From: a virus
Lineage: Duplodnaviria > Caudoviricetes
Virus record (IMG/VR): IMGVR_UViG_3300032893_000040
Coordinates: 1,637-65,636 of that record
Strand: one strand, 5' to 3'
Length of the DNA: 64,000 bases
Shown: piece by piece, positions 2,634 to 62,767 of the stretch
How positions within the stretch are numbered: the first letter of the stretch is position 1
Layout: every line of letters begins with the position of its first letter
Notes under the pieces: model-generated
Databases searched by the model: none
What the model was told of the DNA's origin: nothing
Seen by the model: only the letters and a program-made list of their open reading frames with translations
Position numbers and translations under genes: made by a program

Positions 2634-2834
2634 ATGGAAGAGAAAAACAAGTTTTTCTCTTCTGGTGGCCAAGAGCAGGCCACCCCTTTGATTGCTTGCC
2701 AGAAATGCCAGCACTTCCGCGCTCACCACACCCATTTCACTGAAGGGATTTGCTTCCGGACGGGCAGGTACGTGTGGACTACCTGCCTCCCCAGCCCGGA
2801 TTGGTGCCCACTCAAGTTTACAGGAGACCATTAA
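2634..2834 (+). CDS. small Cys-rich protein
   Basis: CQKCQH...C...C...PDWCPL; TAATG coupling to the polymerase. Confidence 0.6.
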   Translation: MEEKNKFFSSGGQEQATPLIACQKCQHFRAHHTHFTEGICFRTGRYVWTTCLPSPDWCPLKFTGDH

Positions 2835-5053
2835 TGCCACACAAGTTCACCAAGCGTCGTGAGGTGCTCGTCCCGGAGACGACCTTCAACGACAAGCTGA
2901 AGGAGATATTCAATGCGTGCGGTCTATGGATACTTGAATGCCAGTTGCCTATTAACGGCGGCCACGGAAGGGGTATTACGGTATGCCTCTTCGACGAGAT
3001 GGAACTCAACGCCGCAGGGAAGAAGGGACACAAAGGGTGGGTTGGCAAGAGCTTTGAAAGTGATGGGATACGCTACGTTGTATTCCCTAACGTTAACGGC
3101 GGGATTTCTGATGTTGGCGGCTTTGAGCGTGCCATTGGTGTTCTTAACTCTGTGGAAACGCCAAAGGGATCCATCCGCATCATCACCACCCCGAAAGAAC
3201 TCGCGGAAGCAATAGAATATCTCAGGACACTGGCGTACGTCGTGTGCGACTTCGAGACAACCACGCTCGACCCCTATCTCCCAGGGGCACGGGTACTCAC
3301 GCTGGCCGCTGGTAACAGGGACCGCGTGTACGTGATGCCGATGTCGCACAAGGACAGCCCATGGCGCGGGAACGTGACTGCCCAACGTGACTTCATCCGC
3401 GCCGTGTATTTTTCCAGACACATGGTGGCCCACAATGCCAAGTTCGAACTCCGGTGGTTCCTGGCCCTCGGGCAGAGTCTGCGCTACATAGACTTCGACC
3501 CGATGGTCGTGCACCACCTTCTGGACGAGAATTCGGCGCATGATCTTGAAACGCTTGCCGCCCAATACACGAATTTCGCCGGATACTCCCATGAGTTTTC
3601 CTCTTCCCTTACTGATAAGCATAATTACGAGTCTGCTCCTTTCGATCTGCTTTGTCGCTACAACGGTATGGATGTGCTGGTTACTGATTACGTTACCGTT
3701 GCGCTTCGTAACGAGCTTGAAAGGGCAGAGAACGACAAAATCCGGCAGTGTTGGCAGGACATCAATCAACCTCTCATCAGTCTCCTTGCAGAAATGGAAC
3801 ACGCGGGTTTTGTACTCGACGAAGACAAGCTCGTGGAACTCACCGCGTGGTACGAAGGCAGGCAGGCATACTACGAAGGGGAGGTCAAGAAATACCGGCA
3901 ACTCCAACAGTTCTTCCGCGATCGACCGAACTTCAATTTTGGAAGCACTGTCCAGTTACAGTCCCTCCTTTATGGGGAGCTGGGCTTTAAGCAGATGAGG
4001 GGCCACATGACGGAGCCATCCACCAAGTTCCCGAAGGGCCAGCCCTCCACCAACAAGGAAGCCATCAAGGCGATGAAGGCGACCGGGAAGCACATTCCCG
4101 TGCTGGATGGACTCGCCATGCGTACCAAATGCAACTCGATGCTCAAGGCGTTCCTATACGTCTTCCAGGGTAAGCTGGATAATTCGACGGACGGGAAGCT
4201 TCACACCAACTTCAACCAGCACATAGTGGAAACCTTCCGGCTCTCGTCGTCCGGTCCGAACATGATGAATCTCCCACGGTCGGAGGACCTCGCCAATCTC
4301 GGGCTGGAATTTCCCAAGCGCGTGTTCGTCTCCCGGTTCGACGGCGGGGAACTCGTTCAGGCGGACCTTTCCCAGATCGAACTCCGGGTGGCCGGGATGT
4401 ATTCCAAGGACCCCGTGTTCGTCAACGCGTTCGCAGAGGGGCGCGATCTCCACGGGGAGATGGCCGAATTCGTGTACGGCAAGGGCTACACGAAGGAACA
4501 ACGCTACAAGGCGAAGCGCACCAATTTCTCCGCCGTCTTCGACATCGGTGCGGCGGCACTCGCCCCCCAGATCGAAGCCACGGTGGACGAGGCCCAGGAA
4601 CTGATCGACTCCTTCAAGGAACTCCACCACGTGCTGTTCGAATGGTTCAATGAACTTTGGGCACAGGCGCAGTTTGATGGTTACGTAGAGAACTTCCTCG
4701 GCCGTCGCCGCCACATCCGTATGGAACTTTCACGGGCCTTCAAACAGCATGAGATTGATGCGGTCCGCCGCTCCACCTGGAACTTTCCAATTCAGTCCTC
4801 TGCCGCCGATATCATGCTGACCGGGATGCTGGCTCTCCGCGAGGCCATGCGTAAGCACCAGATGAAGAGCGTGATTCTGGGGATGGTCCATGATTCAATC
4901 ATCGTGGACGCTTACCCCGGCGAATCGGAACGCATGATGTCCGGCATCAAGTCCATCTTTGAGAACCTGCCGTATGATTGGCTCACCATACCCGTTCGCA
5001 TTGATGTTGCGCATGGTCCTAACCTTCATGAGCTTGAGGAATGGAACCCGTGA
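2834..5053 (+). CDS. polA: family A DNA polymerase with 3'-5' exonuclease (candidate Z-adapted polymerase)
   Basis: ExoI CDFETT, ExoII HNAKFE, ExoIII YNGMD; RLSSSGPN; motif A ADLSQIELRV, motif B KRTNFSAVF, NFPIQS, motif C VHDS; start at MPHKF with GGAG RBS. Confidence 0.95.
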   Translation: MPHKFTKRREVLVPETTFNDKLKEIFNACGLWILECQLPINGGHGRGITVCLFDEMELNAAGKKGHKGWVGKSFESDGIRYVVFPNVNGGISDVGGFERAIGVLNSVETPKGSIRIITTPKELAEAIEYLRTLAYVVCDFETTTLDPYLPGARVLTLAAGNRDRVYVMPMSHKDSPWRGNVTAQRDFIRAVYFSRHMVAHNAKFELRWFLALGQSLRYIDFDPMVVHHLLDENSAHDLETLAAQYTNFAGYSHEFSSSLTDKHNYESAPFDLLCRYNGMDVLVTDYVTVALRNELERAENDKIRQCWQDINQPLISLLAEMEHAGFVLDEDKLVELTAWYEGRQAYYEGEVKKYRQLQQFFRDRPNFNFGSTVQLQSLLYGELGFKQMRGHMTEPSTKFPKGQPSTNKEAIKAMKATGKHIPVLDGLAMRTKCNSMLKAFLYVFQGKLDNSTDGKLHTNFNQHIVETFRLSSSGPNMMNLPRSEDLANLGLEFPKRVFVSRFDGGELVQADLSQIELRVAGMYSKDPVFVNAFAEGRDLHGEMAEFVYGKGYTKEQRYKAKRTNFSAVFDIGAAALAPQIEATVDEAQELIDSFKELHHVLFEWFNELWAQAQFDGYVENFLGRRRHIRMELSRAFKQHEIDAVRRSTWNFPIQSSAADIMLTGMLALREAMRKHQMKSVILGMVHDSIIVDAYPGESERMMSGIKSIFENLPYDWLTIPVRIDVAHGPNLHELEEWNP

Positions 5054-5743: not shown

Positions 5744-6238
5744 ATGCCTAACAGGAATAATGAGCGCGGCAAGACCGCAGAGCGTCGAATCGCCAAGACT
5801 CTGACGCGCATTATAGGCTGGAACTTTGCAAGGACCCCCGGTTCAGGGTCGGGACACCTGTGGAAGTTCTTCCAGGGAGAGCGCGTGAGAGGCGATATCG
5901 TCTGCGTGACCAAGGATGTGAATTTTCCTTTCATGATCGAATCGAAAAAGTCCAAGGATTTCCAGTGGGATTTGTTGCTGACGGGCCATCCCCCGGCTGA
6001 CTTCGACAAGTGGTGGGAGAAAGCCAAGAAGGACGCGTCAGCGGACGGGAAGTTTGCCGCGCTTGTTATTTCTCGCAATCAGGGTCCGATGGTGACGGTG
6101 GTGAGCGGTGCCGCATGGATGGCTTTCGGTATGAGTACGGCGTACACAGCCGTAAGATTGATGTACCGGAACAAGATTTTGATTCTCTGTACGCTCGAAG
6201 ATTTCGCCGAAGCATTCAAAACCAGGAGGAACAAATGA
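5744..6238 (+). CDS. Holliday junction resolvase-like PD-(D/E)xK nuclease
   Basis: GKTAERRIAK, RTPGSG, GDI, IESKK motifs. Confidence 0.8.
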   Translation: MPNRNNERGKTAERRIAKTLTRIIGWNFARTPGSGSGHLWKFFQGERVRGDIVCVTKDVNFPFMIESKKSKDFQWDLLLTGHPPADFDKWWEKAKKDASADGKFAALVISRNQGPMVTVVSGAAWMAFGMSTAYTAVRLMYRNKILILCTLEDFAEAFKTRRNK

Positions 6239-6711: not shown

Positions 6712-7584
6712 ATGCCGAAGGCACCAGGCCTCGATATGGCCCGCTTGATAGCGGGTTACAATGAGGCAAAAGCCAAACAGGCAACGGCGGCTGGATTCAT
6801 CCGGCTTCAGGACGGTGAGAACAGGCTTCGTCTCACCACGTTCACGAATGGGGAAACCGGGAAGGGGGAATTGTACGTTCAGTACACCTCCCATTTTCTG
6901 GTGGACACGTCCGTTGCCTGCCTCAAGATGTTCGGGGAGCCGAATTGCCCCGTCTGCGACTACATCGCAGAGCTGAAGAAGCGTGATCTGAGTGCCGTCG
7001 CCAAAAAGATGGCACCCAAACAGCGGTTCTATTTCAACGTCCTCGTCAAGGGCGAGATGAAAGTCCTTGAAGTCGGGCGGCAGATATGGGACCAGATCAT
7101 GGCTTTCTTCGCTGACCCGGAGTACGGCAACATCGCCGACACCGAGTCCGGGTGCGACATCAAGATCACGCGGTCCGGTTCGGGCCTGACCACCGAATAC
7201 TCGGTGCTCTGTGCCCGGAACGCGTCCAAAGTGGTCCTCCCCGAGGAGCCGAAGGACCTCAACAAGCTCGTGGTGCGTCTCTCGCCCGAGGCCATGGAAG
7301 AGGTGCTCTACTCCAAGTACGAACGGCTGGATGATGCGGTTCCGTTCTCGGTCAATGACGCGGAAGAGGCGCACGCGAGGGGTGCTTCCGCCGCTCATGC
7401 ATCCGACGCATCAGAAGGGGACGATTTCGCCCCTCCCCCGGCGCAGACCGGACCCCAGCCCGAGAAGAAGCCGATGACCAAGGCGGAGCAGGCAAGCTGG
7501 GCGGATGACACGTTCGGCAAGGGCAAGAAGCCGACACCTGCCAAACCCGCCAAGCCGACACCCGCGAAGCCGGGAAAGCGGTAA
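6712..7584 (+). CDS. gp32-like single-stranded DNA-binding protein
   Basis: LQDGENRLRL; Zn ligands H..C..CPVC; GCDIKITRSGSGLTTEY; acidic/Pro/Lys tail. Confidence 0.8.
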   Translation: MPKAPGLDMARLIAGYNEAKAKQATAAGFIRLQDGENRLRLTTFTNGETGKGELYVQYTSHFLVDTSVACLKMFGEPNCPVCDYIAELKKRDLSAVAKKMAPKQRFYFNVLVKGEMKVLEVGRQIWDQIMAFFADPEYGNIADTESGCDIKITRSGSGLTTEYSVLCARNASKVVLPEEPKDLNKLVVRLSPEAMEEVLYSKYERLDDAVPFSVNDAEEAHARGASAAHASDASEGDDFAPPPAQTGPQPEKKPMTKAEQASWADDTFGKGKKPTPAKPAKPTPAKPGKR

Positions 7585-7671: not shown

Positions 7672-7875
7672 ATGGAACACTACACATTTCGAGCGAGTCT
7701 CCGGTTGTCCCGGAACTACAACTCGATCGAGGTCTCCGCGGAGTATGGTCGGGACCTGAAGCCGAAGGAGACTACGGAGCGGATGATCGAAGACGTAACG
7801 AAGACCGTGTGGGAGAAGCTGGAACGCGAGGCCGCACGCGCTGATGAAGTCCTCAATTCCACCAAGAAAGGATGA
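7672..7875 (+). CDS. hypothetical protein
   Basis: AGGAGG RBS; ATGA overlap with purZ. Confidence 0.75.
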   Translation: MEHYTFRASLRLSRNYNSIEVSAEYGRDLKPKETTERMIEDVTKTVWEKLEREAARADEVLNSTKKG

Positions 7876-9008
7876 CCATGCAACCAGGCAAGATCAATAT
7901 GGTGATGGGCGGTCAGTGGGGGAGCGAAGCCAAGGGAAAGCTTGCCGGATATCTCGCCCTCCGGAAGAGTCCTTACGCGTCCGTCTGCAACTTCTTGACC
8001 AACGCCGGCCACTGGTTCAGGTCGAAATCGATGGGTGACTTCCTCGTTCAACAGCTTCCGATGGCGGCGGTCAATCCGCACGTGAAGCTCTTGATTTCGG
8101 CTGGGTCCGGCATCACGATCAAGACCCTGGAGAAGGAGATCGAACAGTTCGAGTCGAGAGGCATCCGCATTACCAATCGGCTCACGATCGACCCGCACGC
8201 ATTCATTATCGAGGAGAAGCACAAGCAGGAGGAAGCGGGGGGCGGACTCGGGCGAATCTCCAGCACGCTCAAGGGATGCGGGGCGGCACTCGCGGCCAAG
8301 GTGGCACGCAAGGAGGATGTCGTCTTGGTGAAAGACGTTCCCGCCATGCACAGGTACGGGACCGTTGCGCGAGTTGCCCCCCTGCTTCACGGCTGGCTCT
8401 CTCTCGGATACACCATCATGGGGGAGCTGGCTCAGGGGTTCGACCTGTCGCTCAATCACGGGCATCTGTACCCGCACGTCACCTCCCGTGACATCACGCC
8501 GTCCTCCTTCCTGGCGGACATCGGAGTACCCCCCCGGTACGCAGGGACCGTGTACGCGGCTCTCCGGACGTTCCCGATTCGCGTGGGACACGTGTACGAC
8601 GACAAGGGCAACATCGTGGGTCACTCCGGCCCCCATTACAGCGATCAGACTGAACTCACATGGGACGAGCTTTCCGCTGAGAACGGGCGGCACATACTCG
8701 AGCACACGACTGTGACCGGAAAGGTGCGGCGCGTGTTTTCGTTCTCGATGCTTCAACTCATGAAGTTCAGTGAGTACTGTTCCCCGAACGTGATCTGTCT
8801 GCAGTTCTGCAACTATTTCCGGAACGTGTATCCGGGCATCGGGTACGCGGACCTCATGAAAACGGAGTGCGGCACGCTCATTCGCAACATCGAACGCGCC
8901 ACGAAAATTCCAGTGCTATATCTCGGGACCGGGGCCGACGATCTTGAGATGATCGATCTCACGTCGCAGGAACATCTCGACGCGGCGGCGGCAAGGAGTG
9001 TTGACTGA
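7872..9008 (+). CDS. purZ: PurZ-family N6-succino-2-amino-dAMP synthetase (2-aminoadenine pathway)
   Basis: Adenylosuccinate synthetase fold with GGQWGSEAKG (Ser where PurA has the catalytic Asp), NAGH, STLKGCG, AQGFDL, YPHVTS, RTFPIRV, TTVTGKVRRV, QFCNY. Confidence 0.88.
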   Translation: MTMQPGKINMVMGGQWGSEAKGKLAGYLALRKSPYASVCNFLTNAGHWFRSKSMGDFLVQQLPMAAVNPHVKLLISAGSGITIKTLEKEIEQFESRGIRITNRLTIDPHAFIIEEKHKQEEAGGGLGRISSTLKGCGAALAAKVARKEDVVLVKDVPAMHRYGTVARVAPLLHGWLSLGYTIMGELAQGFDLSLNHGHLYPHVTSRDITPSSFLADIGVPPRYAGTVYAALRTFPIRVGHVYDDKGNIVGHSGPHYSDQTELTWDELSAENGRHILEHTTVTGKVRRVFSFSMLQLMKFSEYCSPNVICLQFCNYFRNVYPGIGYADLMKTECGTLIRNIERATKIPVLYLGTGADDLEMIDLTSQEHLDAAAARSVD

Positions 9009-9505
9009 TGGAAAGACCGAAACGAATCTTCTGGATGTTGGGTGAGCAACAGGCCGGGAAGTCCATGCTCACCCACGTGCTCCGATCTTACGGGGCATCC
9101 GTCCTCCAGATAGGGGAGGAGCTTCGTAAGACCATCACCCCGCGTGAGTTTGCTGAGATGAGCAACCCGTACGGCCCGGAGGAGGTCGAGAAGCGTGTGC
9201 AGGATATGATCTACACCGCCGTGCGGACCTTCGACCGGGACCCCCGGAGCACCGTGCTTGTCATAGATTCAGCTCCCCGGAACCGTGGACAGGCCCTCCT
9301 CATGCGGGACGTACAGGACATCAGCACGGTACTGTTCCTGTCGGAGAACTTCGAGGTCCGCAAGAATCGTGCCCGTCAGAGATACGGCAACGATCTCACG
9401 CTCTTCGAGAAAAGGGAGGCCTTCGAGAGGGCGTGGCTCGCGGAGTTCCTTCAGACCTGCATCGAAATGAACCTTGACTACATCGAGCTGAAAGGACAGG
9501 CATAA
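9008..9505 (+). CDS. adenylate-kinase-like (d)NMP kinase
   Basis: P-loop GEQQAGKS; IGEELR; LVIDSAPRNRGQA resembles the AK motif DGxPRxxxQ; TGATG coupling to purZ. Confidence 0.75.
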   Translation: MERPKRIFWMLGEQQAGKSMLTHVLRSYGASVLQIGEELRKTITPREFAEMSNPYGPEEVEKRVQDMIYTAVRTFDRDPRSTVLVIDSAPRNRGQALLMRDVQDISTVLFLSENFEVRKNRARQRYGNDLTLFEKREAFERAWLAEFLQTCIEMNLDYIELKGQA

Positions 9506-9606
9506 TGGCCACACGTAACGGTGATGAGGCCCAGACTACCGTCATGATTGTAATTCTTGTAATAGCTGGTATTCTGCTCATAGCACTCCATCCATGGGTG
9601 AATTAA
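9505..9606 (+). CDS. small single-TM protein (33 aa)
   Basis: VMIVILVIAGILLIAL; TAATG coupling on both sides. Confidence 0.55.
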   Translation: MATRNGDEAQTTVMIVILVIAGILLIALHPWVN

Positions 9607-10061
9607 TGGACGAGACCGAATTTCTGGTTTACATCGCCGACACGCGTGCTGGGATGCAGTTCAAAGCTCAGAAGGACGGAGACTGTGGATATGACCTCGA
9701 AGTCTGGTTTCCAAATGGGCAGACTGAGATTACTCTGCTCCCGTGGTCGTTCGTGGACCTGCCGACAGGTCTGTGCGTTAAGGTGGGCGATAACGCGTGG
9801 GGTATGGTCCGCCCAAGAAGCTCTACATTATTTAAACGTAGACTTCTCGTGGGTGAGGGCACAATTGATTCTGGGTATACGGGGCCTCTTTACGTCACGG
9901 TATACAACCCCACCCCGTACGCGGCGGTGATTAAGAACGGCGACCGTCTCGGCCAACTCATTCCTGTCCCCAAATTTAAGACTGTGAAGGTGACCTATGT
10001 CAGTGAAATGCCCAATACTGCGCGTGGGACCAGCGGATTCGGCTCAACCGGAGGGATTTAA
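9606..10061 (+). CDS. dut: trimeric dUTPase-family nucleotidohydrolase
   Basis: All five motifs: CGYDL, PRSS, GTIDSGYTG, GDRLGQL, RGTSGFGSTG. Confidence 0.9.
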   Translation: MDETEFLVYIADTRAGMQFKAQKDGDCGYDLEVWFPNGQTEITLLPWSFVDLPTGLCVKVGDNAWGMVRPRSSTLFKRRLLVGEGTIDSGYTGPLYVTVYNPTPYAAVIKNGDRLGQLIPVPKFKTVKVTYVSEMPNTARGTSGFGSTGGI

Positions 10062-10554
10062 TAATACAACTACCACCTGGAAAGGGAAGCGAAATTTCGG
10101 CAAGACAGTGTGCGTGGACTTCGACGGGGTGATCGCCGGGATGCAGAAGGGATGGCGCGGTCCTGATAGTTTCGGGCCAATCATACCGGGGGCGTGCTTA
10201 TCATTACAACGGCTTGCTGGCGATGGGTGGTACATCATTATTTTCACTACCAGACTTGTCACCCGTCAGTTGGTCGAATGGCTCAAAGGTAATTGCGTCC
10301 CATTTAATGATATCAACGGTCGGTGCTTCGTCGAGAAGGGCGTACTCTATGTGCGTCTCCAGCGTTACAATCGGTCCACCGTTGATTATCGCCCCGCCCG
10401 TCCCCGGTGGTACTGGAGACACAACCCGGAATGGGCCAGTATCAAGCCGATCGCGTCCGTCTATCTGGACGACCATGGTTGGCCCATCAAGGGTGACTTC
10501 ACGCCGAACGTGTGGAATGCGGTAGTAAGGGACCTGATAGATGGAAATTACTGA
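9997..10554 (+). CDS. HAD-superfamily phosphatase/nucleotidase
   Basis: CVDFDGVI, IFTTR, KP, YLDD; start codon uncertain. Confidence 0.8.
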   Translation: MSVKCPILRVGPADSAQPEGFNNTTTTWKGKRNFGKTVCVDFDGVIAGMQKGWRGPDSFGPIIPGACLSLQRLAGDGWYIIIFTTRLVTRQLVEWLKGNCVPFNDINGRCFVEKGVLYVRLQRYNRSTVDYRPARPRWYWRHNPEWASIKPIASVYLDDHGWPIKGDFTPNVWNAVVRDLIDGNY

Positions 10555-11860
10555 ACTTACGCTGGGGATACCTGACGACTTCCAGCGTACACTTATTGCA
10601 CTCATGTGTGCGGACCCGGATTGGTTGGAGGTGAACCGCCCGTTCGTTAAGGCGGAATTCTTCGACCGGATGGAGCACAGAGCCGTGGTGGGGTGCATAC
10701 TCGAGTTCTTCGATAAGCACGGGACTCCACCCACCTTTGACGTGCTGGATGACGTGATAAGGGAGAGGCTCCCCAATCCGGACCTCCTCGGCGCGTCTCT
10801 CCGGGAGATTTCCTGCGTGCAGGACATTGAAATCACTCTTTCCAAGGTGCGTCATGCCACAGATAAGCTACAAGTCTTCGCTGAAACTCAACATCTCCGT
10901 GAATGCATCAGAGCCGGAGCAATTGCCATCGACGGAGGAGATATTGCATCTGCTCGCCGTGCACTGGCTTCAGCCGAAGACGTTGCGCGGATCAACCACT
11001 CTGCGGTTCTCTCGATATTCGATGAAACTGGGATGGACGAGAGGTCCGATAAGGAGTCAGAAGTCGAGACGATGGACAAGATACCCACTCTTCATCGGGG
11101 TCTTGATAAAAAGCTTCGCGGAGGTTTTGCTCGTAAGGAGCTTCACATTCTTATGGCACCTCCTTATCGTGGCAAGTCGGCTGGCCTGGTTGATCTGGGG
11201 GGGAACGCGCTCTTTTGTGGGGCCAAGGTTCTCCACGTTACTTGTGAAATGTCGGCTAAGAAAACCGCCAGCCGATACGACCTCAAAATCTCCGGCATGA
11301 CGCGTGATGAGATAGAGGCTAACCCGACCGAGTTCAAAGCCCGGATGCTCCATTTCCAGAGCACCTTCAAGGGAAATCTGAAGGTCATCGAGTTCCCCTC
11401 CCGGTCGGCGACGGTGGCCGATATCGAAGCCCAGATGAAGTTCCTGCTCCGTAGGCAGAATTTTTGGCCCGACGTGCTCGTGGTGGACTATCTGGACGAA
11501 CTCAAGCGTCCGAACCGCGATAACGAGGCTTACGCACTCGGGCAAGTAACCTCCGAACTCCGTGCCCTCAACCAGAAGAGCAACACGGTCGGCCTGTCCG
11601 CTACCCAGACCACGAGACAGGGGTTCTCCAAGCAACGCCTCGACATGGACGACATCGGCGACTCCTGGGAAAAGGTGAAGATCGCCGACAGTCTCATAGG
11701 GATGTGTCAAACCAAGGATGAGGAAGATGACAACACCATGCGCCTGTACATGCTCAAGAACAGGGACAACCAGCGGAATTCATCCCCGGTCTTGATGCGG
11801 ACCATATTTGAACGGATGACGTTCAAGGACATCACATTCGAGGAAGGGGCGGCAAAATGA
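10541..11860 (+). CDS. DnaB-like (SF4) replicative helicase
   Basis: APPYRGKS, TCEMS, VVDYLD, SATQ, KNRD. Confidence 0.92.
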   Translation: MEITELTLGIPDDFQRTLIALMCADPDWLEVNRPFVKAEFFDRMEHRAVVGCILEFFDKHGTPPTFDVLDDVIRERLPNPDLLGASLREISCVQDIEITLSKVRHATDKLQVFAETQHLRECIRAGAIAIDGGDIASARRALASAEDVARINHSAVLSIFDETGMDERSDKESEVETMDKIPTLHRGLDKKLRGGFARKELHILMAPPYRGKSAGLVDLGGNALFCGAKVLHVTCEMSAKKTASRYDLKISGMTRDEIEANPTEFKARMLHFQSTFKGNLKVIEFPSRSATVADIEAQMKFLLRRQNFWPDVLVVDYLDELKRPNRDNEAYALGQVTSELRALNQKSNTVGLSATQTTRQGFSKQRLDMDDIGDSWEKVKIADSLIGMCQTKDEEDDNTMRLYMLKNRDNQRNSSPVLMRTIFERMTFKDITFEEGAAK

Positions 11861-13191
11861 GACTGATACCAGCAGGACCGATACTTTCGGTAACGGGGCA
11901 GGATTATCAATCCATCTCGCTCGCATGGACCGACATCTCTCAACCAGGGATCCCGGTGATAGGTTACCAGATTTATCGCGGTCTAGGCTCGAGCCCGTCG
12001 TCGTTCAGCCTGATCGCTACCGTGGGGAGACAACTCACTTATGTAGATCAGGGCCTTTCCCCATCAACCACTTACAGCTATTACGTAGTCGGGATTTACC
12101 AGCCGGGACTTCTCACGTCCCCATCCAACATCGTCACAGACACCACGGCGGCGGCTATTCCTTGGCTTTACGCGCTCCGGTCCGGGGCGATGGACATTTA
12201 CAACGTGGCTGATCCAGCACACATGTCGCTCAATAACAGCGACACAGCATATTCCCAGGGAAGTACAGCCAACCAGCAACTTGCCGATTCGGATTACCTG
12301 TATCTGGCAAACGACGGGAAGGTCGGCATCTATAGGTGGTCGGCCAATCCAACGGCACCCACCAATCCGTTTCTGTATAGCCATGCGAGCCAGATAATAG
12401 TGAGGCGCGGCCTCACCAACTACAACAATCTCATGCTGTTGTGGGTTGGGTCTCCATTTGCTGACATCGGCATCTATACCTACAACATCTCGAATCCGGC
12501 GAGTCCAACACAGCTTTATCATTCAACCGGGGACAGTGAGCTTGCGGCCGGACAGAAAGGCCCCGGTCATTCGGCATTCGCTTTTGACCCTGTTGGTGGG
12601 AAGCTCTGGTTCTGTACGGCGTGGACCGGATATAAGTACGAGATTTCGTATTTCCCCATAGCCTCTGACGGGACCATCGGGGCAATGAACACCATGTACC
12701 AGACCATCTGGGGCGGATCGAACGAAGCTTCGATGGCGTTCATCTACAACGGTAGGTTCTGGTACAACCAGAACCAGACATGGCTCAAGTCGTATTACAT
12801 GAACGGCGGCGGTGAAGCCATGACTCCGTGGACTTGGCCCGGAGCCGCGGGTGATTTCCATTATCAACCTCCGAGAATCGTTGGGGGGCACTATGCAATA
12901 TTTGGTGCTGATGGGGCCAACGCCGCTCACGGTGCGCTTATTGTGGTCGATCTCAACACAATGACGGTGGTTGCCAACATCGGAACCCTGAATACGCAGT
13001 GCACGTCGTTCACGATAGCGGGTCCTTACCTGTTTTACGTGACAGGGACCACCCTCTATGCGTACAACATCTCAAATCCGACCTCACCTTCACTGGTGAG
13101 TAGCCTCGGCAGTCTACCGGCCTCTGCCATCGGCTTGACAGGGTACGCGTCCACAGGCTGGGATGGGAATAACGGACTCTGCACGTCATGA
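11857..13191 (+). CDS. fibronectin-III plus beta-propeller (LVIVD-like) protein
   Basis: SISLAW..GYQIYR..TYVDQGLSPSTTYSYYV; three YN(V/I)(A/S)(D/N)P blade ends; LIVVDL. Confidence 0.7.
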   Translation: MRLIPAGPILSVTGQDYQSISLAWTDISQPGIPVIGYQIYRGLGSSPSSFSLIATVGRQLTYVDQGLSPSTTYSYYVVGIYQPGLLTSPSNIVTDTTAAAIPWLYALRSGAMDIYNVADPAHMSLNNSDTAYSQGSTANQQLADSDYLYLANDGKVGIYRWSANPTAPTNPFLYSHASQIIVRRGLTNYNNLMLLWVGSPFADIGIYTYNISNPASPTQLYHSTGDSELAAGQKGPGHSAFAFDPVGGKLWFCTAWTGYKYEISYFPIASDGTIGAMNTMYQTIWGGSNEASMAFIYNGRFWYNQNQTWLKSYYMNGGGEAMTPWTWPGAAGDFHYQPPRIVGGHYAIFGADGANAAHGALIVVDLNTMTVVANIGTLNTQCTSFTIAGPYLFYVTGTTLYAYNISNPTSPSLVSSLGSLPASAIGLTGYASTGWDGNNGLCTS

Positions 13192-14120
13192 TAAACGTCA
13201 ATCAAATCGCCGCCGTATTCGGAACGATCTGGGATTCACACGGTCCCGAGTACAAAGTCACGTGCCCCAAGTGTAGCACGAAGGCACTCTGGATTAACGT
13301 GAGGAAGCACGCTTATCACTGCTTCTCCTGCGGGGACGGGGGGGCACTCCAGCTTTTGGTTCCTGGATGGGCACCGAGTATCACGGCTCAATGGGTCGGG
13401 GCGAGTGAGAAGGAGACATTTGAAATTCCGGATGTCCTTCCACTTAGCTACATGAGGATAAGGTCTCGATGCGACTATCGGCCGGGGTGGGACTACATCG
13501 AGCATCGTGGAGTTCAGGCCGGGGCGGTGGAATGGGGTGTCGTGCCCGGAGATTCGGCTGTGTACTTCCCGATGAGGGAGCAGGGTAGAATAGTTTATTG
13601 GCAATCCCGGTCTCACTCCTGGGTGGAGAAGCGCAAAACCCAGAACCCGAAGGGTATTGCTAAAAGTGAAGTCGTGTATCGGATTGATGAATTGGGGGGC
13701 GGGGATGTTTTTCACGCGATCTGTATCATCGTGGAGGGAATCTTCGATGCGCTCCGGGTGGGCGGCGTGGCCACCCTCGGCAAGACCTGCAGTCCGGCAC
13801 AGGCTTATAAGATTCTGAACCGGAGGCCTTACGTAATCTTCGTGGTGTACGACGATGATGCGTATGAGGCTTCGAAGGTCACGGCGAAGATGTTCTCGGA
13901 GATGGACCGGAGCATACCTGCGATTCCTGTTTACATCACCGGGGGTGACCCTGCTGATCTCGGATGGGATTACGTGAGGTTGGCTATCAGAGCGGCCCTT
14001 TGGGGCCATGAATCAATTTGCTCACTATGCGGCGTAAGCGCGAAATCGATCGAGACACGGTTGCTGGAGATGTCCCCAAAGACTGCGCTATCATGCTCCC
14101 GGTTATCTCCACCGCGTTAG
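13188..14120 (+). CDS. DNA primase (Zn finger + TOPRIM)
   Basis: CPKC...HCFSC, IVEGIFDAL, YDDD, GDPAD. Confidence 0.9.
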   Translation: MINVNQIAAVFGTIWDSHGPEYKVTCPKCSTKALWINVRKHAYHCFSCGDGGALQLLVPGWAPSITAQWVGASEKETFEIPDVLPLSYMRIRSRCDYRPGWDYIEHRGVQAGAVEWGVVPGDSAVYFPMREQGRIVYWQSRSHSWVEKRKTQNPKGIAKSEVVYRIDELGGGDVFHAICIIVEGIFDALRVGGVATLGKTCSPAQAYKILNRRPYVIFVVYDDDAYEASKVTAKMFSEMDRSIPAIPVYITGGDPADLGWDYVRLAIRAALWGHESICSLCGVSAKSIETRLLEMSPKTALSCSRLSPPR

Positions 14121-14622
14121 CATGCCCCGCCGCTTGGGCACTCGTGCCCCGGAGTTTGGTATCGTAGAACACGCGTTCGGCACGGGTGACCAGCGGACGG
14201 GGGGGTGCGAGCAGGAGTTCCAGAACGCGCCTGTCGATGTCAAATTCCAGGGCCATGGAGATCATGTCGGCGTACTCCTTCAGCACGAGCACGTCGAACG
14301 GTGAAGGTTCCCGCGACTCGAGTATCTCCTCCCCCCACTCGTCCTTGAGACCGTCATCTTCAAGACCGAACGTGCGCGAATAGGCGCGGTAGAAGTCGCA
14401 GAGTAGGTTGTGTATCGAGGTACGAAACAGTGCGGTGAGTTCCGCATCCGGGATGCTGGTGCGCCGGAGTAGCTCAACCAGCTTGATGGCGCACTCCTGC
14501 CTGAGGTCCTCCGCGATGCGGTAACGGAAGCTGGAGGAGAACCGTGCGCACATGTGCTCGACGTACGGACCTACCTCCTGCCAGATACGATCAAACCGCT
14601 TATCAACGTGTTGGCTTCGCAT
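13987..14622 (-). CDS. phage sigma70-family (ECF-sized) sigma factor
   Basis: Region 2 AEDLRQE...IHNLLCDFYR; region 4 HTH MIAQSLGTSPATVSRSISRLR. Confidence 0.85.
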   Translation of the reverse strand: MRSQHVDKRFDRIWQEVGPYVEHMCARFSSSFRYRIAEDLRQECAIKLVELLRRTSIPDAELTALFRTSIHNLLCDFYRAYSRTFGLEDDGLKDEWGEEILESREPSPFDVLVLKEYADMISMALEFDIDRRVLELLLAPPRPLVTRAERVFYDTKLRGTSAQAAGHANAVEITGSMIAQSLGTSPATVSRSISRLRRIVSKLIHGPKGPL

Positions 14623-53436: not shown

Positions 53437-53670
53437 ATGGTAGATATCAAAAGGTACAACAGGCTGAAAGATCAGGGCCTCGCAAAGGTCATTTCACAGG
53501 GTCCCGGCCTGTACAGCGTGCGGTTCTCCAGGTTCGATGTTGAGAACGGGCAGGAATTGGAACCGGAAATCCAGCCCCTCTCCATGGAAGAGCTTCTCAC
53601 GGTGAGGGCGACTCTGGAATCCCAGGTTCAGGCCATCAATGAGATCATCGCTCAGATGGTGACTGCATGA
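53437..53670 (+). CDS. hypothetical protein
   Basis: AGGAG RBS; coupled to the GT gene. Confidence 0.65.
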   Translation: MVDIKRYNRLKDQGLAKVISQGPGLYSVRFSRFDVENGQELEPEIQPLSMEELLTVRATLESQVQAINEIIAQMVTA

Positions 53671-56600
53671 TCTCCATCGTCATACCCACATATTCGAACG
53701 CGAAGGGCTTTCAATCTTGCGTTGAAAGCATCCTCGAGAATTCGACACTGGATGACTACGAGATTGTCGTAGTCGCCAATGGCGCACCACAGGAGACGCG
53801 GGAAACGATTTTCGCTCTCGAGCATCGGGCACGCGTACAGAGCAAGTGGTTCGATGAGCCGATCGGCATGACACGGGCAACGAACGAGGGCATCAAGCTT
53901 GCCAAGGGCGATTTCATTGTCGTCCTGAACGACGACACGGTAATTCTCGGCCCCGAGTGGCTCAAGCTTCTGCAGGAACCATTTGCGGATGCAACTGTCG
54001 GCGTGACGGGACCGCAGAAGGAACATGACCCGAACTCCAATCACGACTTCCTCATCTTCTTCTGTGTGATGATTCGGAGGGACGTGTTTGCCCGTATCGG
54101 GATTCTGGACGAGGTGTTCAACCCCGGCTTCGGAGAGGACACGGACTTCTGTATCCGGGCCGAGCGTGCCGGATTCAAGGTGGTGACGGTGCCCAGTGAG
54201 GAGGGGCATTTCCTTGCCGATCATCCGAACAGTTCTGATCTCCCCGAATGGAAGAAGCAGAAAATGTGGGTGGGGCAGTTCCCCATCTACCACGACGGGG
54301 AGCAGACCTTCAGCAAGCTTAAGGACACCGACTCCATCCTTGAACGGAACCGGAAGATTCTTCATGACCGCTACGCCTCACCATACAACATCGATTATGC
54401 CGTACGTATCGATGGCTGGATGGCGGAGGAGGAACTGCGTTGGCTTGCAAAGAAGGCCACGGAACACAAAACCGTGATTGAAGTTGGAAGTTGGCACGGC
54501 CGCAGTTCAAGGGCTATCGCCGACAACCTCCCGGCGAACGGCAAGCTCTACTGCGTGGACACTTGGGGAGGGTCCAGCGGGGAACCGGACGCGCACGGCT
54601 CAGCGAAGCAGAAGGAAGGCGATAATGCCTTCATCTACTTCAACAAGCACATGAGCGAGCACCTCCTCACCGGGAAGGTCCGGGCAATCCGCATGACGAG
54701 CACGAACGGGGCGGAACTTCTCAAGGACCTCGCCATACAGGCGGATATGATCTTCATCGATGCTGATCACAACTACGAAAACGTGAAGGCGGACATCGAG
54801 AGTTACCTTCCTCTTCTCGCCCCCGGTGGCCTCATCTGCGGACACGACTACAGCGAAGAACAACTTGTGTGGGTGGGCGTGAAGCAGGCGGTGAACGAAC
54901 GGTTCCCTAACGTCTCCCGCGCCCCGAAAACGTCGATCTGGTACGTGGACCCGAAGAAACTCGCTCCGGTGAGGAAACGCGAGGTATATGATTGTTTCGT
55001 GTTCTTCAACGAGCTGGACCTCCTGGAGATGCGCCTCACGGAGCTGGATGGGGTGGTTGACCATTTCGTGGTGGTCGAGGGAGTCAAAACCCATTCCAAC
55101 CAGCCGAAGCTGCTCTATTTCAAGGAGAACGCGGAACGGTTTGCCCGTTGGAAGGACCGAATCATTCACGTGGTGGTGGACGATTACCCGGAATTTACCA
55201 ACGCGTGGGACAACGAGCGCCACCAGCGCGATTCCATTTTGAAGGGTCTTGTTGGCTGTCAGGATGACGACATCATTATCATCTCTGACGTGGACGAGAT
55301 TCCGAGGGCGCACATGGTGGAGACCTACAATCCGAAAACTGGTATCGGATTCGTGGAACAGGACCTCTACTACTATTTTCTGGATTGTCAGTGCACCCAC
55401 AAATGGAACTGGCTCCGCATACTCCCGTGGAAGCTGATGAAGGGCATGACACCCTGTCAGGTCAGATACTTCCCGGCCACAGAAAACATAATCCCGAACG
55501 GGGGGTGGCACTTCTCCTTCATGGGCGGGGTGGACCGTATCATTGACAAGGTGAAGGCCTACGCCCACCAGGAGTACAATACCCCGGACTTCCTGGACCC
55601 GAAACGCCTCTTGGAGAAGGTGAGGGCTGGCGAGGACATCTTCGGCAGGGACGAGCATTATAAGATCGTCCCCGTGGATGACTCCTTTCCGGGCTACGTT
55701 CGGTCCCACAAGGCGGAACTCGCAGGGAAGGGATATATAGCCGGACTTACCAAGCGGACGGTGACCGCGGAGATTTCCACCAAGGACCGCTATTTCACGA
55801 CGCTCCCGATGGCGGTGATGTCGGTGGTAAACCAGACCCGGAAACCTGACAGGCTCGTTATCTTTGACGACGGCGAGCAGAAGGACCTCCGCGAGGTCTC
55901 CCCCTACAAGGCCCTTCTGCAAATGTGTCAGGATGCGGGAATCGCGTGGGAGGTTCAAGCCACCCCGCGCATGGGGCAGGTGGCCAACCACCAGCACATG
56001 CTCGACACCGCACAGACCGATTTCGTGTGGCGGCTTGATGATGACAACGTGGCGGAGCCTACCTGCCTCGCCAAGCTCCTCGAGTCCATGGAAGACCCGA
56101 AGGTGGGGGCGGTGGGCGGTCTGGTATTCCACCCAGGCGCAGTTCAGCCTCTTCCCAGATTCGTCACCGCGAAGATGGAGGACATCTTTACCGGACTGAA
56201 CATGCAGTGGTTCCAGTGGAACGGTGGGCCGCGTGAAGCGGAACATCTATACTCCACATTCCTCTACCGCGTGGAAGCCGGGAAGGCCGCAGGCGGGTAC
56301 CAGAAGAACCTTTCCCCGGTTGGGCATCGCGAGGAAACAATATTCACGCACTCCATCCAGAGGGCGGGGTACAAGCTACTGGTCAATCCCGGTGCCAAGA
56401 CATGGCATCTCAGGGAGTCCAGCGGAGGAATCCGCTCCTACAAGGAAGGTGGACATTGGGACCACGACGAACTCATCTTCCGTGAGAAGCTTTCCGAGTG
56501 GAGAATAGCGGTCCGCGCAAAGAAAGTTATCGTGCTGGATTGCGGCCTCGGTGACCACTGGGCCTTCAAATCGGTGTGGCCGGAGATCAAGGAAAGGTAT

Positions 56601-56786
56601 AAGGATGGGGATGTCATTCTGGCGGTGTGCTTCCCGGAACTGTTCCCCGGAGAGAATCTGATCTCGATCGCCGATGCGAAGCTCCTCCTGGGCGACAAGT
56701 TCGATCAGACCAACATCTACAAGTGGATGTGGGACAACGGGTGGAACAAATCGTTGCCAGAGGCATGGCGGGAGTTCCTCAAATGA
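53667..56786 (+). CDS. multidomain GT2 - SAM methyltransferase - GT17-like - GT2 - GT9-like N-domain enzyme
   Basis: SIVIPTY/LNDD/GEDTDF; EVGSWHGRS/FIDADH/GHDY; FFNELDLL/SDVDEIP/GWHFSF; STKDR/FDDG/LDDD; GLGDH. Confidence 0.88.
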   Translation: MISIVIPTYSNAKGFQSCVESILENSTLDDYEIVVVANGAPQETRETIFALEHRARVQSKWFDEPIGMTRATNEGIKLAKGDFIVVLNDDTVILGPEWLKLLQEPFADATVGVTGPQKEHDPNSNHDFLIFFCVMIRRDVFARIGILDEVFNPGFGEDTDFCIRAERAGFKVVTVPSEEGHFLADHPNSSDLPEWKKQKMWVGQFPIYHDGEQTFSKLKDTDSILERNRKILHDRYASPYNIDYAVRIDGWMAEEELRWLAKKATEHKTVIEVGSWHGRSSRAIADNLPANGKLYCVDTWGGSSGEPDAHGSAKQKEGDNAFIYFNKHMSEHLLTGKVRAIRMTSTNGAELLKDLAIQADMIFIDADHNYENVKADIESYLPLLAPGGLICGHDYSEEQLVWVGVKQAVNERFPNVSRAPKTSIWYVDPKKLAPVRKREVYDCFVFFNELDLLEMRLTELDGVVDHFVVVEGVKTHSNQPKLLYFKENAERFARWKDRIIHVVVDDYPEFTNAWDNERHQRDSILKGLVGCQDDDIIIISDVDEIPRAHMVETYNPKTGIGFVEQDLYYYFLDCQCTHKWNWLRILPWKLMKGMTPCQVRYFPATENIIPNGGWHFSFMGGVDRIIDKVKAYAHQEYNTPDFLDPKRLLEKVRAGEDIFGRDEHYKIVPVDDSFPGYVRSHKAELAGKGYIAGLTKRTVTAEISTKDRYFTTLPMAVMSVVNQTRKPDRLVIFDDGEQKDLREVSPYKALLQMCQDAGIAWEVQATPRMGQVANHQHMLDTAQTDFVWRLDDDNVAEPTCLAKLLESMEDPKVGAVGGLVFHPGAVQPLPRFVTAKMEDIFTGLNMQWFQWNGGPREAEHLYSTFLYRVEAGKAAGGYQKNLSPVGHREETIFTHSIQRAGYKLLVNPGAKTWHLRESSGGIRSYKEGGHWDHDELIFREKLSEWRIAVRAKKVIVLDCGLGDHWAFKSVWPEIKERYKDGDVILAVCFPELFPGENLISIADAKLLLGDKFDQTNIYKWMWDNGWNKSLPEAWREFLK

Positions 56787-62397: not shown

Positions 62398-62555
62398 GCC
62401 AGAGCGGTTTTGAGGCGTTCGTTCTCCGCTCGGAGTTTCACGATGTCGTCAGCGATGATGCTACGCGCCGCGATTTGGCCGTCTCGTTTCGACAAGTCTA
62501 CTATGCGCCCAATCTCAAGCGTTACCATGTGTTTATGAAGTTCGTTCTCGTTCAT
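62040..62555 (-). CDS. modular coiled-coil accessory protein (mosaic with 61379-61822)
   Basis: LRAENERLK; shared blocks; start moved to MNENEL. Confidence 0.72.
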   Translation of the reverse strand: MNENELHKHMVTLEIGRIVDLSKRDGQIAARSIIADDIVKLRAENERLKTALAAAESKHAEEMRSVEAENPILHEGVESVAERAKWTFAMQASEIRRLTARLSSLESRHAEEMREGIAWAYVMAVYDWTGGESEITLGPQRKKELVAAFLATRQSHSGTENVPSGDRKDKT

Positions 62556-62767
62556 TTTCCCCTCTTGTCTTTGTGGAGGCGGACGGAGGTGACGGTGACG
62601 GTGACCTGATGCGTGTGGTCGTCGCATCGCTTGGCCTCAAGAAGCGACTTCCCATAACCGAGGAAGCGCACCCACGGACCGCCGCACCATCGCAACACGT
62701 TCGGGCCGCCAGCATAGCCGATGTACTTCCTCACCCTCCCGGTAGCGGGTTTCGTGGAATGGGTCAT
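62552..62767 (-). CDS. hypothetical protein
   Basis: GGAGGT RBS; ATGA overlaps. Confidence 0.55.
   Translation of the reverse strand: MTHSTKPATGRVRKYIGYAGGPNVLRWCGGPWVRFLGYGKSLLEAKRCDDHTHQVTVTVTSVRLHKDKRGK

Follow-up and report, generated by a model that had tools for sequence, protein, structure and literature searches.

A PurZ-side synthetase beside a DutZ-type dUTPase, a kinase and a HAD phosphatase: a candidate Z-genome cassette without DatZ and MazZ in an uncultured phage

How might a phage exchange adenine for 2-aminoadenine (Z) if its genome encodes a PurZ synthetase and neither DatZ nor MazZ? This question is raised by a stretch of 64,000 nucleotides, hereafter the window, which covers positions 1637-65636 of the 65,636-base IMG/VR virus record IMGVR_UViG_3300032893_000040 and in which a cassette at 7872-10554 holds PurZ, a nucleoside monophosphate (NMP) kinase, a 33-residue hydrophobic open reading frame (ORF), a trimeric dUTPase (Dut) and a HAD phosphatase as one coupled run within the replication block. 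An original prediction, made from the letters of the window, had described the run as tightly packed and mostly translationally coupled, and the ORFs, their overlapping junctions and the flanking genes for DNA polymerase, single-stranded DNA-binding protein (SSB), helicase and primase agree with it. In this article I argue, at a probability of roughly 0.6, for the nucleotide-pool cassette of a Z-genome phage that uses the DutZ solution and not DatZ/MazZ, and that brings its own kinase and HAD phosphatase; the narrower statement, a Z-genome in which Dut takes the DatZ/MazZ role, I regard as likely. I infer every substrate named below, and the Z content of the DNA itself, from sequence and gene order.

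The synthetase and its missing partners

The synthetase matches PF00709 at 99.2 bits against a cut-off of 27 and belongs with phrog_1211, a family named '2-aminooxy adenylosuccinate synthetase'. Within GQWGSEAKGK, its Ser18 corresponds in the alignment to the Ser of phiVC8 PurZ and to the catalytic Asp of Escherichia coli PurA, and is invariant in all 19 aligned relatives. Ser in place of the catalytic Asp is given as the criterion for PurZ in passages of two recent reports (PMC12884076; bioRxiv 10.1101/2025.10.22.683976), the first of which states in its text that the 147 phage sequences in its PurZ group all have Ser here, and that Asp13 is 99% conserved in the PurA group and essential. Among solved structures the best relative is phiVC8 PurZ (6FM1, 3.1e-46), then archaeal PurA (5K7X), S-2L PurZ (7ODX) and the PurZ0 of Archimedes (7VF6, 7.7e-30). 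A careful tree of 43 rows, with E. coli PurA and two viral PurA sequences of the Asp type as its root, separates the PurZ/PurZ0 clade, the window included, from these three at a support of 100/100; PurZ0 and L058 diverge first, and the 97/90 clade that follows is composed of Bacillus phage vB_BpsS-140 and a 98/98 group, itself made up of the window's own clade (8 rows, 100/100) together with phiVC8, S-2L and DMU1. By this phylogeny the synthetase is on the PurZ side and not with PurZ0. A closeness to PurZ0 in a quick 92-row LG+G4 tree was overturned by the careful one; the quick tree could not be cleanly rooted, with MaF61 'PurA' and E. coli PurA on opposite sides.

The residues of the protein are mixed in their affinities. 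Its P-loop reads GSEAKGK, as in PurZ0, and not GSTGKG as in the PurZ of the DatZ/MazZ phages. Asn314 (LQFCNYF) stands at the Asp of the E. coli PurA TKLD motif, which I take to be the guanine-reading residue, much as in phiVC8 (LNFCNYL); the position is Asn also in DMU1 and Gln in S-2L, and the Asp is retained in four of four PurZ0 references. Within the window's own tight clade this position itself varies: L061:1243-2370 and L062:1063-2154 carry Asp, P0002 and L060 share Asn with the window, and a switch of phosphate donor may have been both recent and repeated there. By sequence, then, this is a PurZ-side lineage with mixed features that is paired with a DutZ-type Dut, and its family, Ser18 and clade predict that it is most likely a dGMP-using PurZ. 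Scanning viral_contigs with the window's PurZ as a single protein found no close relatives; a scan with an alignment of relatives did yield the loci used below.

Could the cassette be an ordinary nucleotide-salvage block, with a PurA-like enzyme that boosts adenylate, a plain dUTPase and normal adenine in the DNA? All of its genes do come from housekeeping superfamilies, Dut retains the canonical motifs including PRSS, and DatZ and MazZ are absent, yet such a block would have to accommodate a Ser in place of the Asp that the text of PMC12884076 terms essential, a synthetase nested among PurZ and apart from Asp-type PurA, and a Dut whose clade draws its members from Ser-type PurZ records alone, which together make it quite improbable.

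The absence of the usual partners was examined in all six frames of the full record (E <= 1), where the positive controls PF00709 and PF00692 were both recovered and no match was obtained for the HD families (PF01966 HD, PF12917 YfbR-like, PF13023 HD_3), MazG (PF03819), DUF550 (PF04447), DUF5664 (PF18909), the dimeric dUTPase (PF08761), an NDT/DmtZ-type gene (PF05014) or a PurB-type lyase (PF00206). Likewise, tblastn of the full record with DatZ from phiVC8, S-2L and DMU1, S-2L MazZ, the DUF5664-DUF550 protein of DMU1, Wayne gp50 and Archimedes NDT reached at best E = 0.03; the three DatZ queries reached at best 0.21, and no match came from Archimedes NDT or from the N-terminal domain of the Wayne protein. 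The original prediction had seen no datZ or mazZ in 64 kb, and these nine empty family searches and the tblastn extend that statement to the whole record; it had also suggested that the missing genes might lie beyond the window, an escape that is now closed, since only 1.6 kb (at most 1,636 bases) lies outside, is covered by every whole-record search and holds nothing of the kind. The absence is therefore not an edge effect, and the dUTPase-fold enzyme is the sole candidate dNTP pyrophosphatase in the record.

There is also the thought that the record is incomplete or chimeric and that a DatZ/MazZ pair sits on unassembled sequence, to which I give hardly any weight. IMG/VR classes the ends as linear without a terminal repeat, and the sole repeat seen, of 118 bp, is not terminal, but the CheckV completeness of the record is 100, genes for replication, head and tail are all there, the three nearest relatives have the cassette with Dut as well, and DatZ is missing from up to 8 kb of flank at many Dut-bearing PurZ loci. 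The repeat itself is exact and direct, with one copy at record positions 1-118, outside the window, and the other at 64117-64234 (window 62481-62598), 1.4 kb from the record end as assembled.

The dUTPase and the published DutZ solution

What, then, might stand in for DatZ and MazZ? A dUTPase-fold enzyme in their place is already known: Poubanne et al. (NAR 2026, PMC12884076) describe a trimeric enzyme of this fold, named DutZ, that substitutes for both in PurZ0 actinophages, and their text further states that DutZ of Ghobes and Wayne hydrolyses dATP and dGTP, that an NDT-family enzyme, DmtZ, splits dAMP, that dutZ occurs in all 98 PurZ0 genomes of NCBI viruses, that PurZ genomes mostly carry DatZ together with MazZ-2 or DUF550, and that the Duts of PurZ phages are monophyletic (its Fig. 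6A, as the text has it). A preprint likewise suggests, in the part concerned with Wayne-like phages, that a dUTPase may substitute for DatZ/MazZ there (bioRxiv 10.1101/2025.10.22.683976).

The window's Dut, in which all five trimeric-dUTPase motifs are intact, belongs to the same company. A profile scan of viral_contigs returned at least 80 loci; among the best 16 of the matches listed, 11 have PurZ in the flank and two more (L126, L134) have a Ser-type PurZ elsewhere on the contig, and among the remaining 64 listed there is none, where non-PurZ means no PurZ within a flank of up to 10 kb. In a 91-row tree from a quick LG+G4 search over 145 columns, with long branches flagged, a split with support 96 divides 36 Duts from 55 that come from loci without PurZ, and all 36 on the window's side, Wayne, Archimedes, Johann and Spocter included, are from Ser-type PurZ records. 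By sequence the window's Dut is thus in the PurZ-linked DutZ clade, and I propose that it is a dATP/dGTP/dUTP diphosphatase. The original prediction had the dUTPase-fold enzyme supplying dGMP or removing dATP within an alternative enzyme set for the replacement of A by Z; the set is real, and the role agrees with the published DutZ mechanism and the shared clade, whereas neither the principle nor the mechanism is new, having been published in 2026.

Some points weigh against so broad a substrate range. Wayne DutZ still favours dUTP, as the text of PMC12884076 reports, so that membership of the clade is no proof of activity on dATP or dGTP. Motif II of the window's enzyme is PRSS, as in ordinary dUTPases, and GRSS in four actinophage DutZ. 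The tree carries the long branches and the short alignment of a quick search, and the contrast with non-PurZ loci depends on a label taken from the flank and on the best 80 matches of the scan.

What is new is the pairing of a PurZ-side synthetase with a DutZ-type Dut in a complete genome, which breaks the published scheme in which PurZ0 is accompanied by DutZ and PurZ by DatZ/MazZ. With the DutZ/DmtZ system of Ghobes, a Gordonia phage, and Wayne, which infects Arthrobacter, the window has in common a PurZ-family synthetase, a trimeric dUTPase of the same clade, the lack of DatZ, MazZ and DUF550, and a position beside the DNA polymerase in the replication block; it differs in its PurZ-side synthetase (97/90) with Asn and not Asp at the guanine-reading position, in having a HAD phosphatase and an NMP kinase instead of NDT/DmtZ and DUF5664, in a family A DNA polymerase (PolA) that falls in neither reference polymerase group, and in a genome of 65.6 kb against about 43-45 kb. 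With the PurZ-DatZ-MazZ cluster (phiVC8, S-2L, SH-Ab 15497/DMU1, or the version with DUF5664-DUF550) it shares a PurZ with Ser at the catalytic site, the 98/98 clade with phiVC8, S-2L and DMU1, and a TKLD position that is Asp in none of them; there too, the pathway given in the preprint's text needs host PurB (bioRxiv 10.1101/2025.10.22.683976), as would the window's phage with no PurB in its record. Here the differences are the missing HD dATPase and MazG/DUF550 dGTPase, for which the window has kinase, Dut and HAD instead, and the P-loop described above.

The four genes (PurZ, kinase, Dut and HAD) stand in the same order in all three of the closest metagenome loci, L060, L061 and L062, at identities to the window of 53-56% for PurZ, 41-55% for the kinase, 54-59% for Dut and 45-51% for the HAD, which in L061 is truncated by the contig end; because the order is identical in three of three, the arrangement is not chance. 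Nearer still are a PurZ (P0002, 77% identical) and a kinase (P0132, 83%), which are probably on one contig since the longest contig given for each measures 27,436 bases. Many other PurZ-side lineages among the gathered loci have Dut and no DatZ. One contig, L043:6851-8562 with its flank, carries PurZ, a PurZ-clade Dut and a DatZ homologue (34% identical to phiVC8 DatZ, 7e-19), and two dATP-removal systems can therefore co-occur. In the published picture, PurZ goes with DatZ/MazZ, PurZ0 goes with DutZ/DmtZ and the phosphorylation of dZMP, the Z monophosphate, is left to the host; the window's genome and the gathered loci reveal this pairing as an artefact of the cultured sample.

The kinase, the HAD phosphatase and the pathway they would complete

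The gene after PurZ had been called adenylate-kinase-like, which was borne out by a profile of 14 relatives that matches human UMP-CMP kinase (1TEV, 8.8e-10) and also AK1, by an AlphaFold2 model (pLDDT 93.3) whose best Foldseek folds are AK1 (1Z83, 8.6e-7, TMq 0.77) and UMP-CMP kinases, and by conserved E. coli Adk residues, since G7, G12, K13, R36, D84, Q92 and R119 are invariant and R88 nearly so among 11 PurZ-linked kinases. These kinases lack the long LID when aligned with E. coli Adk, and in the window's enzyme no Pfam family reaches its cut-off, the ADK model included. It shares with AK1 and UMP-CMP kinase the fold, the P-loop and the equivalents of R36, D84, R88, Q92 and R119, and differs from them in being viral, PurZ-linked and only about 17-20% identical. 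Adk Q92 presumably recognizes the 6-amino purine of AMP, and the profile alignment shows Asn there in UMP-CMP kinase; the invariant Gln of the PurZ-linked enzymes fits a role on dZMP.

The hidden Markov model (HMM) of this kinase matches in 71 of 131 PurZ loci, with a start nearly always -3 to +15 nt from the PurZ stop, and in one of 72 non-PurZ loci, the record of which has PurZ elsewhere. Once near-identical PurZ were collapsed and at least 1.5 kb was required downstream, the kinase directly followed PurZ in 43 of 77 non-redundant loci, and no other gene neighbours PurZ as often in uncultured phages. Nine of the distant matches, when compared with Pfam, all fell to small nucleotide-kinase families, several under the cut-off.

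Fusions add to this picture. The kinase domain is joined to dUTPase_2 in L005, L009, P0144, P0147, P0153, P0191 and P0251 (27.4 bits in L005 and 31.7 in L009; cut-off 22.9), which would be another route for the dNTP-cleaving step. In a neighbouring lineage the gene after PurZ is such a kinase with an all-alpha dUTPase_2 of the MazG superfamily (L004:3271-4299, L005:8108-9250, L009:8391-9362, L014:8011-9150); these loci resemble the window in the homologous kinase domain after PurZ and in PolA upstream, with a related HAD in L009 and L014, and differ in that their pyrophosphatase is all-alpha and fused to the kinase whereas that of the window is a separate trimeric dUTPase. No publication on this PurZ-adjacent fusion was found. 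L052:5283-6767 encodes 494 residues in which an N-terminal P-loop kinase domain precedes a Ser-type PurZ-like synthetase that retains the guanine-reading Asp. P0178, of 479 residues, combines a PurZ-linked kinase domain (17-140) with an NDT-like Nuc_deoxyri_tr2 domain (335-411), that is, one of DmtZ type. Because its place in the gene order is conserved and it is fused in three different ways, I read the kinase, which the original prediction had suggested could be a dedicated dZMP kinase, as a probable Z-pathway enzyme, and I would put its action on dZMP itself at about even odds.

The kinase was not seen in eight cultured-phage loci examined, although in vB_BpsS-140 a gene annotated as adk lies some 9 kb downstream, where the locus is cut off; tblastn with the window's kinase found no match at 1e-3 in 50,697 GenBank phage records; and its profile has 20 matches at <=1e-30 and 330 at <=1e-10 in a library of 1.84 billion proteins, eukaryotic-style multi-AK proteins among them. 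Literature searches turned up no PurZ-linked phage kinase, with the proviso that the 116 dZ-associated Pfam domains of the metaGPA preprint could already name the kinase or the HAD, and the roles of the PurZ-adjacent kinase and the candidate HAD in a Z pathway are, within the literature searched, newly proposed here. A term search of the text of PMC12884076 returned no 'kinase', 'nucleotidase' or 'HAD', and in the relevant part of the preprint the phosphorylation of dZMP is attributed to host GMP kinase (bioRxiv 10.1101/2025.10.22.683976).

The last gene had been taken for a HAD phosphatase, and so it proves: of the motifs DxD, T, K and DD, residues D39, D41, K148, D156 and D157 do not vary across 12 relatives and T82 hardly does, the profile finds 2OBB at 2.3e-7 and also 1XPJ, and the AlphaFold2 model (pLDDT 78.6, with low confidence in an insert at about 120-150) has the HAD fold, its best Foldseek match being 2OBB (9.8e-5, TMt 0.71), then 1XPJ, the T4 Pnkp phosphatase, GmhB, HisB-N and a phage arabinose-bisphosphate phosphatase (AfhF). 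No Pfam HAD model matches it, and an ESM Atlas search returned just unnamed viral clusters and weak HAD-family leads. With BT_0820 (2OBB), the VC0232-like 1XPJ and the T4 Pnkp 3'-phosphatase it shares the HAD core of DxD, T, K and DD; what sets it apart from them is an Arg-, Tyr- and Trp-rich insert, about 45 residues long, which lies between motifs II and III throughout the window's HAD subgroup, and the substrates of those relatives are unknown or not nucleotides. The gene occurs in 12 of 131 PurZ loci and in one of 72 others, a record that also has PurZ, and the 13 HAD loci and seven NDT loci have no locus in common. The original prediction had the HAD possibly draining dAMP; I likewise propose it as a dAMP (dNMP) 5'-nucleotidase acting as a dAMP sink, and thus as a candidate replacement for DmtZ, because DutZ leaves dAMP that can be recycled, DmtZ is absent and a phosphatase sits in that place; resting as this does on synteny, the absent DmtZ and the logic of the pathway, the assignment is tentative.

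The steps could be joined as follows. Dut would supply PurZ with dGMP by cutting dGTP, would eliminate the competing dATP by cutting it to dAMP, and would still clear dUTP. PurZ would condense dGMP with aspartate to succinoaminodeoxyadenylate (dSMP), with ATP probably as the phosphate donor because Asn replaces the guanine-reading Asp. Host PurB would then make dZMP, and is invoked because the phage has no PurB of its own. The phage's adenylate-kinase-type enzyme would convert dZMP to dZDP, which host NDK would take on to dZTP. The HAD, finally, would turn dAMP into deoxyadenosine and so block the rebuilding of dATP by host adenylate kinase, in which case it would take the role that DmtZ has in PurZ0 phages, and DutZ and HAD together would be the equivalent of DatZ.

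A simpler arrangement is conceivable, in which PurZ and the DutZ-like Dut still make Z-DNA, the kinase is a broad dNMP kinase that recycles dNMPs from the breakdown of host DNA and from the action of Dut, and the HAD is a Pnkp-like 3'-phosphatase or a sugar-phosphate phosphatase unrelated to the removal of adenine. Broad dNMP kinases are familiar in the T4 gp1 and T5 enzymes, UMP-CMP kinases are among the best solved relatives of the window's kinase, the HAD is similar to the phosphatase of T4 Pnkp, to GmhB and to phage AfhF, its weak matches in GenBank phages are annotated as polynucleotide kinase, and it is present in so few PurZ loci. I nevertheless consider this arrangement unlikely, for the adjacency to PurZ and the fusions to PurZ, NDT-like and NTP-pyrophosphatase domains would be unexpected of a salvage kinase, a kinase of broad specificity would cancel the work of Dut by phosphorylating dAMP and dGMP again, Gln at Adk Q92 does not vary among the PurZ-linked kinases aligned, and the HAD is syntenic with Dut in all three nearest relatives.

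The proposal of a dedicated kinase and a dAMP sink has to be weighed against several findings. Among solved structures, UMP-CMP kinases stand as near to the kinase family as adenylate kinases do, a general dNMP kinase suits the gene order almost equally well, and a kinase that accepted dAMP would oppose the pathway. Of the closest HAD structures, 2OBB and 1XPJ have no assigned function and the others (T4 Pnkp, GmhB, AfhF) work on DNA 3' ends or sugar phosphates, the gene is in only about a tenth of PurZ loci, and its mutual exclusion with NDT comes from small numbers, partial contigs and a BLAST-level search for NDT. As for the synthetase, its phosphate donor is uncertain because the sisters L061 and L062 retain the guanine-reading Asp.

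Why should this matter? Z-DNA phages are studied as an expanded genetic alphabet, as evaders of restriction and as a source of enzymes for Z-DNA in cells. A wider and more doubtful generalization is that environmental Z-phages are commonly more self-sufficient than the cultured ones, having a core of PurZ and a dedicated dZMP kinase to which interchangeable modules are added, namely trimeric DutZ, dUTPase_2 or DatZ/MazZ for dNTP cleavage and NDT/DmtZ or HAD for the disposal of dAMP. Were that so, the window's would be the first complete genome to combine a PurZ-side synthetase and DutZ with a dZMP kinase of its own and a HAD as dAMP sink, and would represent a third convergent way to exclude adenine, with the phosphatase perhaps as another route to its irreversible removal. 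A true dZMP kinase would also offer an off-the-shelf component for engineered Z-DNA production in hosts with kinases that deal poorly with dZMP.

Gene layout and neighbouring features

The coordinates of the cassette and its surroundings are collected in Table 1.

Table 1. The cassette and flanking replication genes, in window coordinates
Feature	Position	Strand	Remarks
PurZ-type succinoaminodeoxyadenylate synthetase	7872-9008	+	378 aa; PF00709 2.9e-28; phrog_1211 7.8e-58
Short-LID adenylate-kinase-type NMP kinase	9008-9505	+	165 aa; AAA_17 2.9e-5, under Pfam cut-off
Hydrophobic small ORF, doubtful gene	9505-9606	+	33 aa; one hydrophobic stretch
Trimeric dUTPase-fold enzyme, PurZ-linked (DutZ) clade	9594-10061	+	155 aa; PF00692 9e-19; phrog_135 2.6e-30
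Small HAD-superfamily phosphatase	9997-10554	+	185 aa; no Pfam family; phrog_1238 1.8e-10
Family A DNA polymerase (PolA) with exonuclease domain	2750-5053	+	upstream context
PDDEXK nuclease	5744-6238		upstream of cassette
gp32-like SSB	6712-7584		upstream of cassette
DnaB-like helicase	10541-11860	+	PF03796 7.7e-13; downstream of cassette
Primase-like protein	13188-14120		downstream of cassette

Overlaps at the cassette junctions, which were read directly, range from 1 to 65 nt: 4 nt between orf67 and PurZ, 1 nt between PurZ and the kinase, 1 nt (TAATG) between the kinase and the small ORF, 13 nt between the small ORF and Dut, or 1 nt from the likely Dut start at ATG 9606, 65 nt between Dut and the HAD, or 59 nt from the GTG (10003) that begins the called HAD gene P0121, and 14 nt between the HAD and the DnaB helicase. 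The true HAD start is uncertain. The HAD ORF covers the 3' end of Dut, which encodes motif V, by about 60 nt in the window (9997-10061), in L060:2965-3023 and in L061:3414-3475; a frameshift fusion of Dut and HAD, which this overlap had suggested, was discarded in view of the plain overlap of only 4 nt in L062.

A small transmembrane gene had been listed as part of the run. The hydrophobic ORF does exist, but it has no counterpart in the equivalent gap of L060, L061 or L062, so it is ruled out as a conserved part of the cassette and may not be a gene.

The polymerase upstream is a candidate Z-incorporating enzyme. In a FastTree tree of 41 PolA it forms a long branch in a 28-row group, apart from the Wayne/Archimedes and phiVC8/DMU1 polymerases; all 41 rows are from PurZ loci, with no non-Z controls, so this tree bears on relationships and says nothing on Z-specificity.

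The original prediction spoke of a podovirus-like lineage; among the structural genes PHROGs named just a major head protein and tail-fibre-like proteins. Three further ORFs deserve mention. Between the helicase and primase genes, and coupled to both, is an ORF of 444 residues (11857-13191, +) that weakly matches fibronectin type III at its N-terminal end, an odd location for such a protein, and one of 211 residues with weak matches to sigma-70 region 2 and a helix-turn-helix (HTH) domain (13987-14622, -) lies at the turn from the replication block to the leftward genes. In the late region, a protein of 1039 residues (53667-56786, +) combines GT2, Methyltransf_24, GT17 and a second, GT2/GT21-like domain, and may modify the host surface or the virion.

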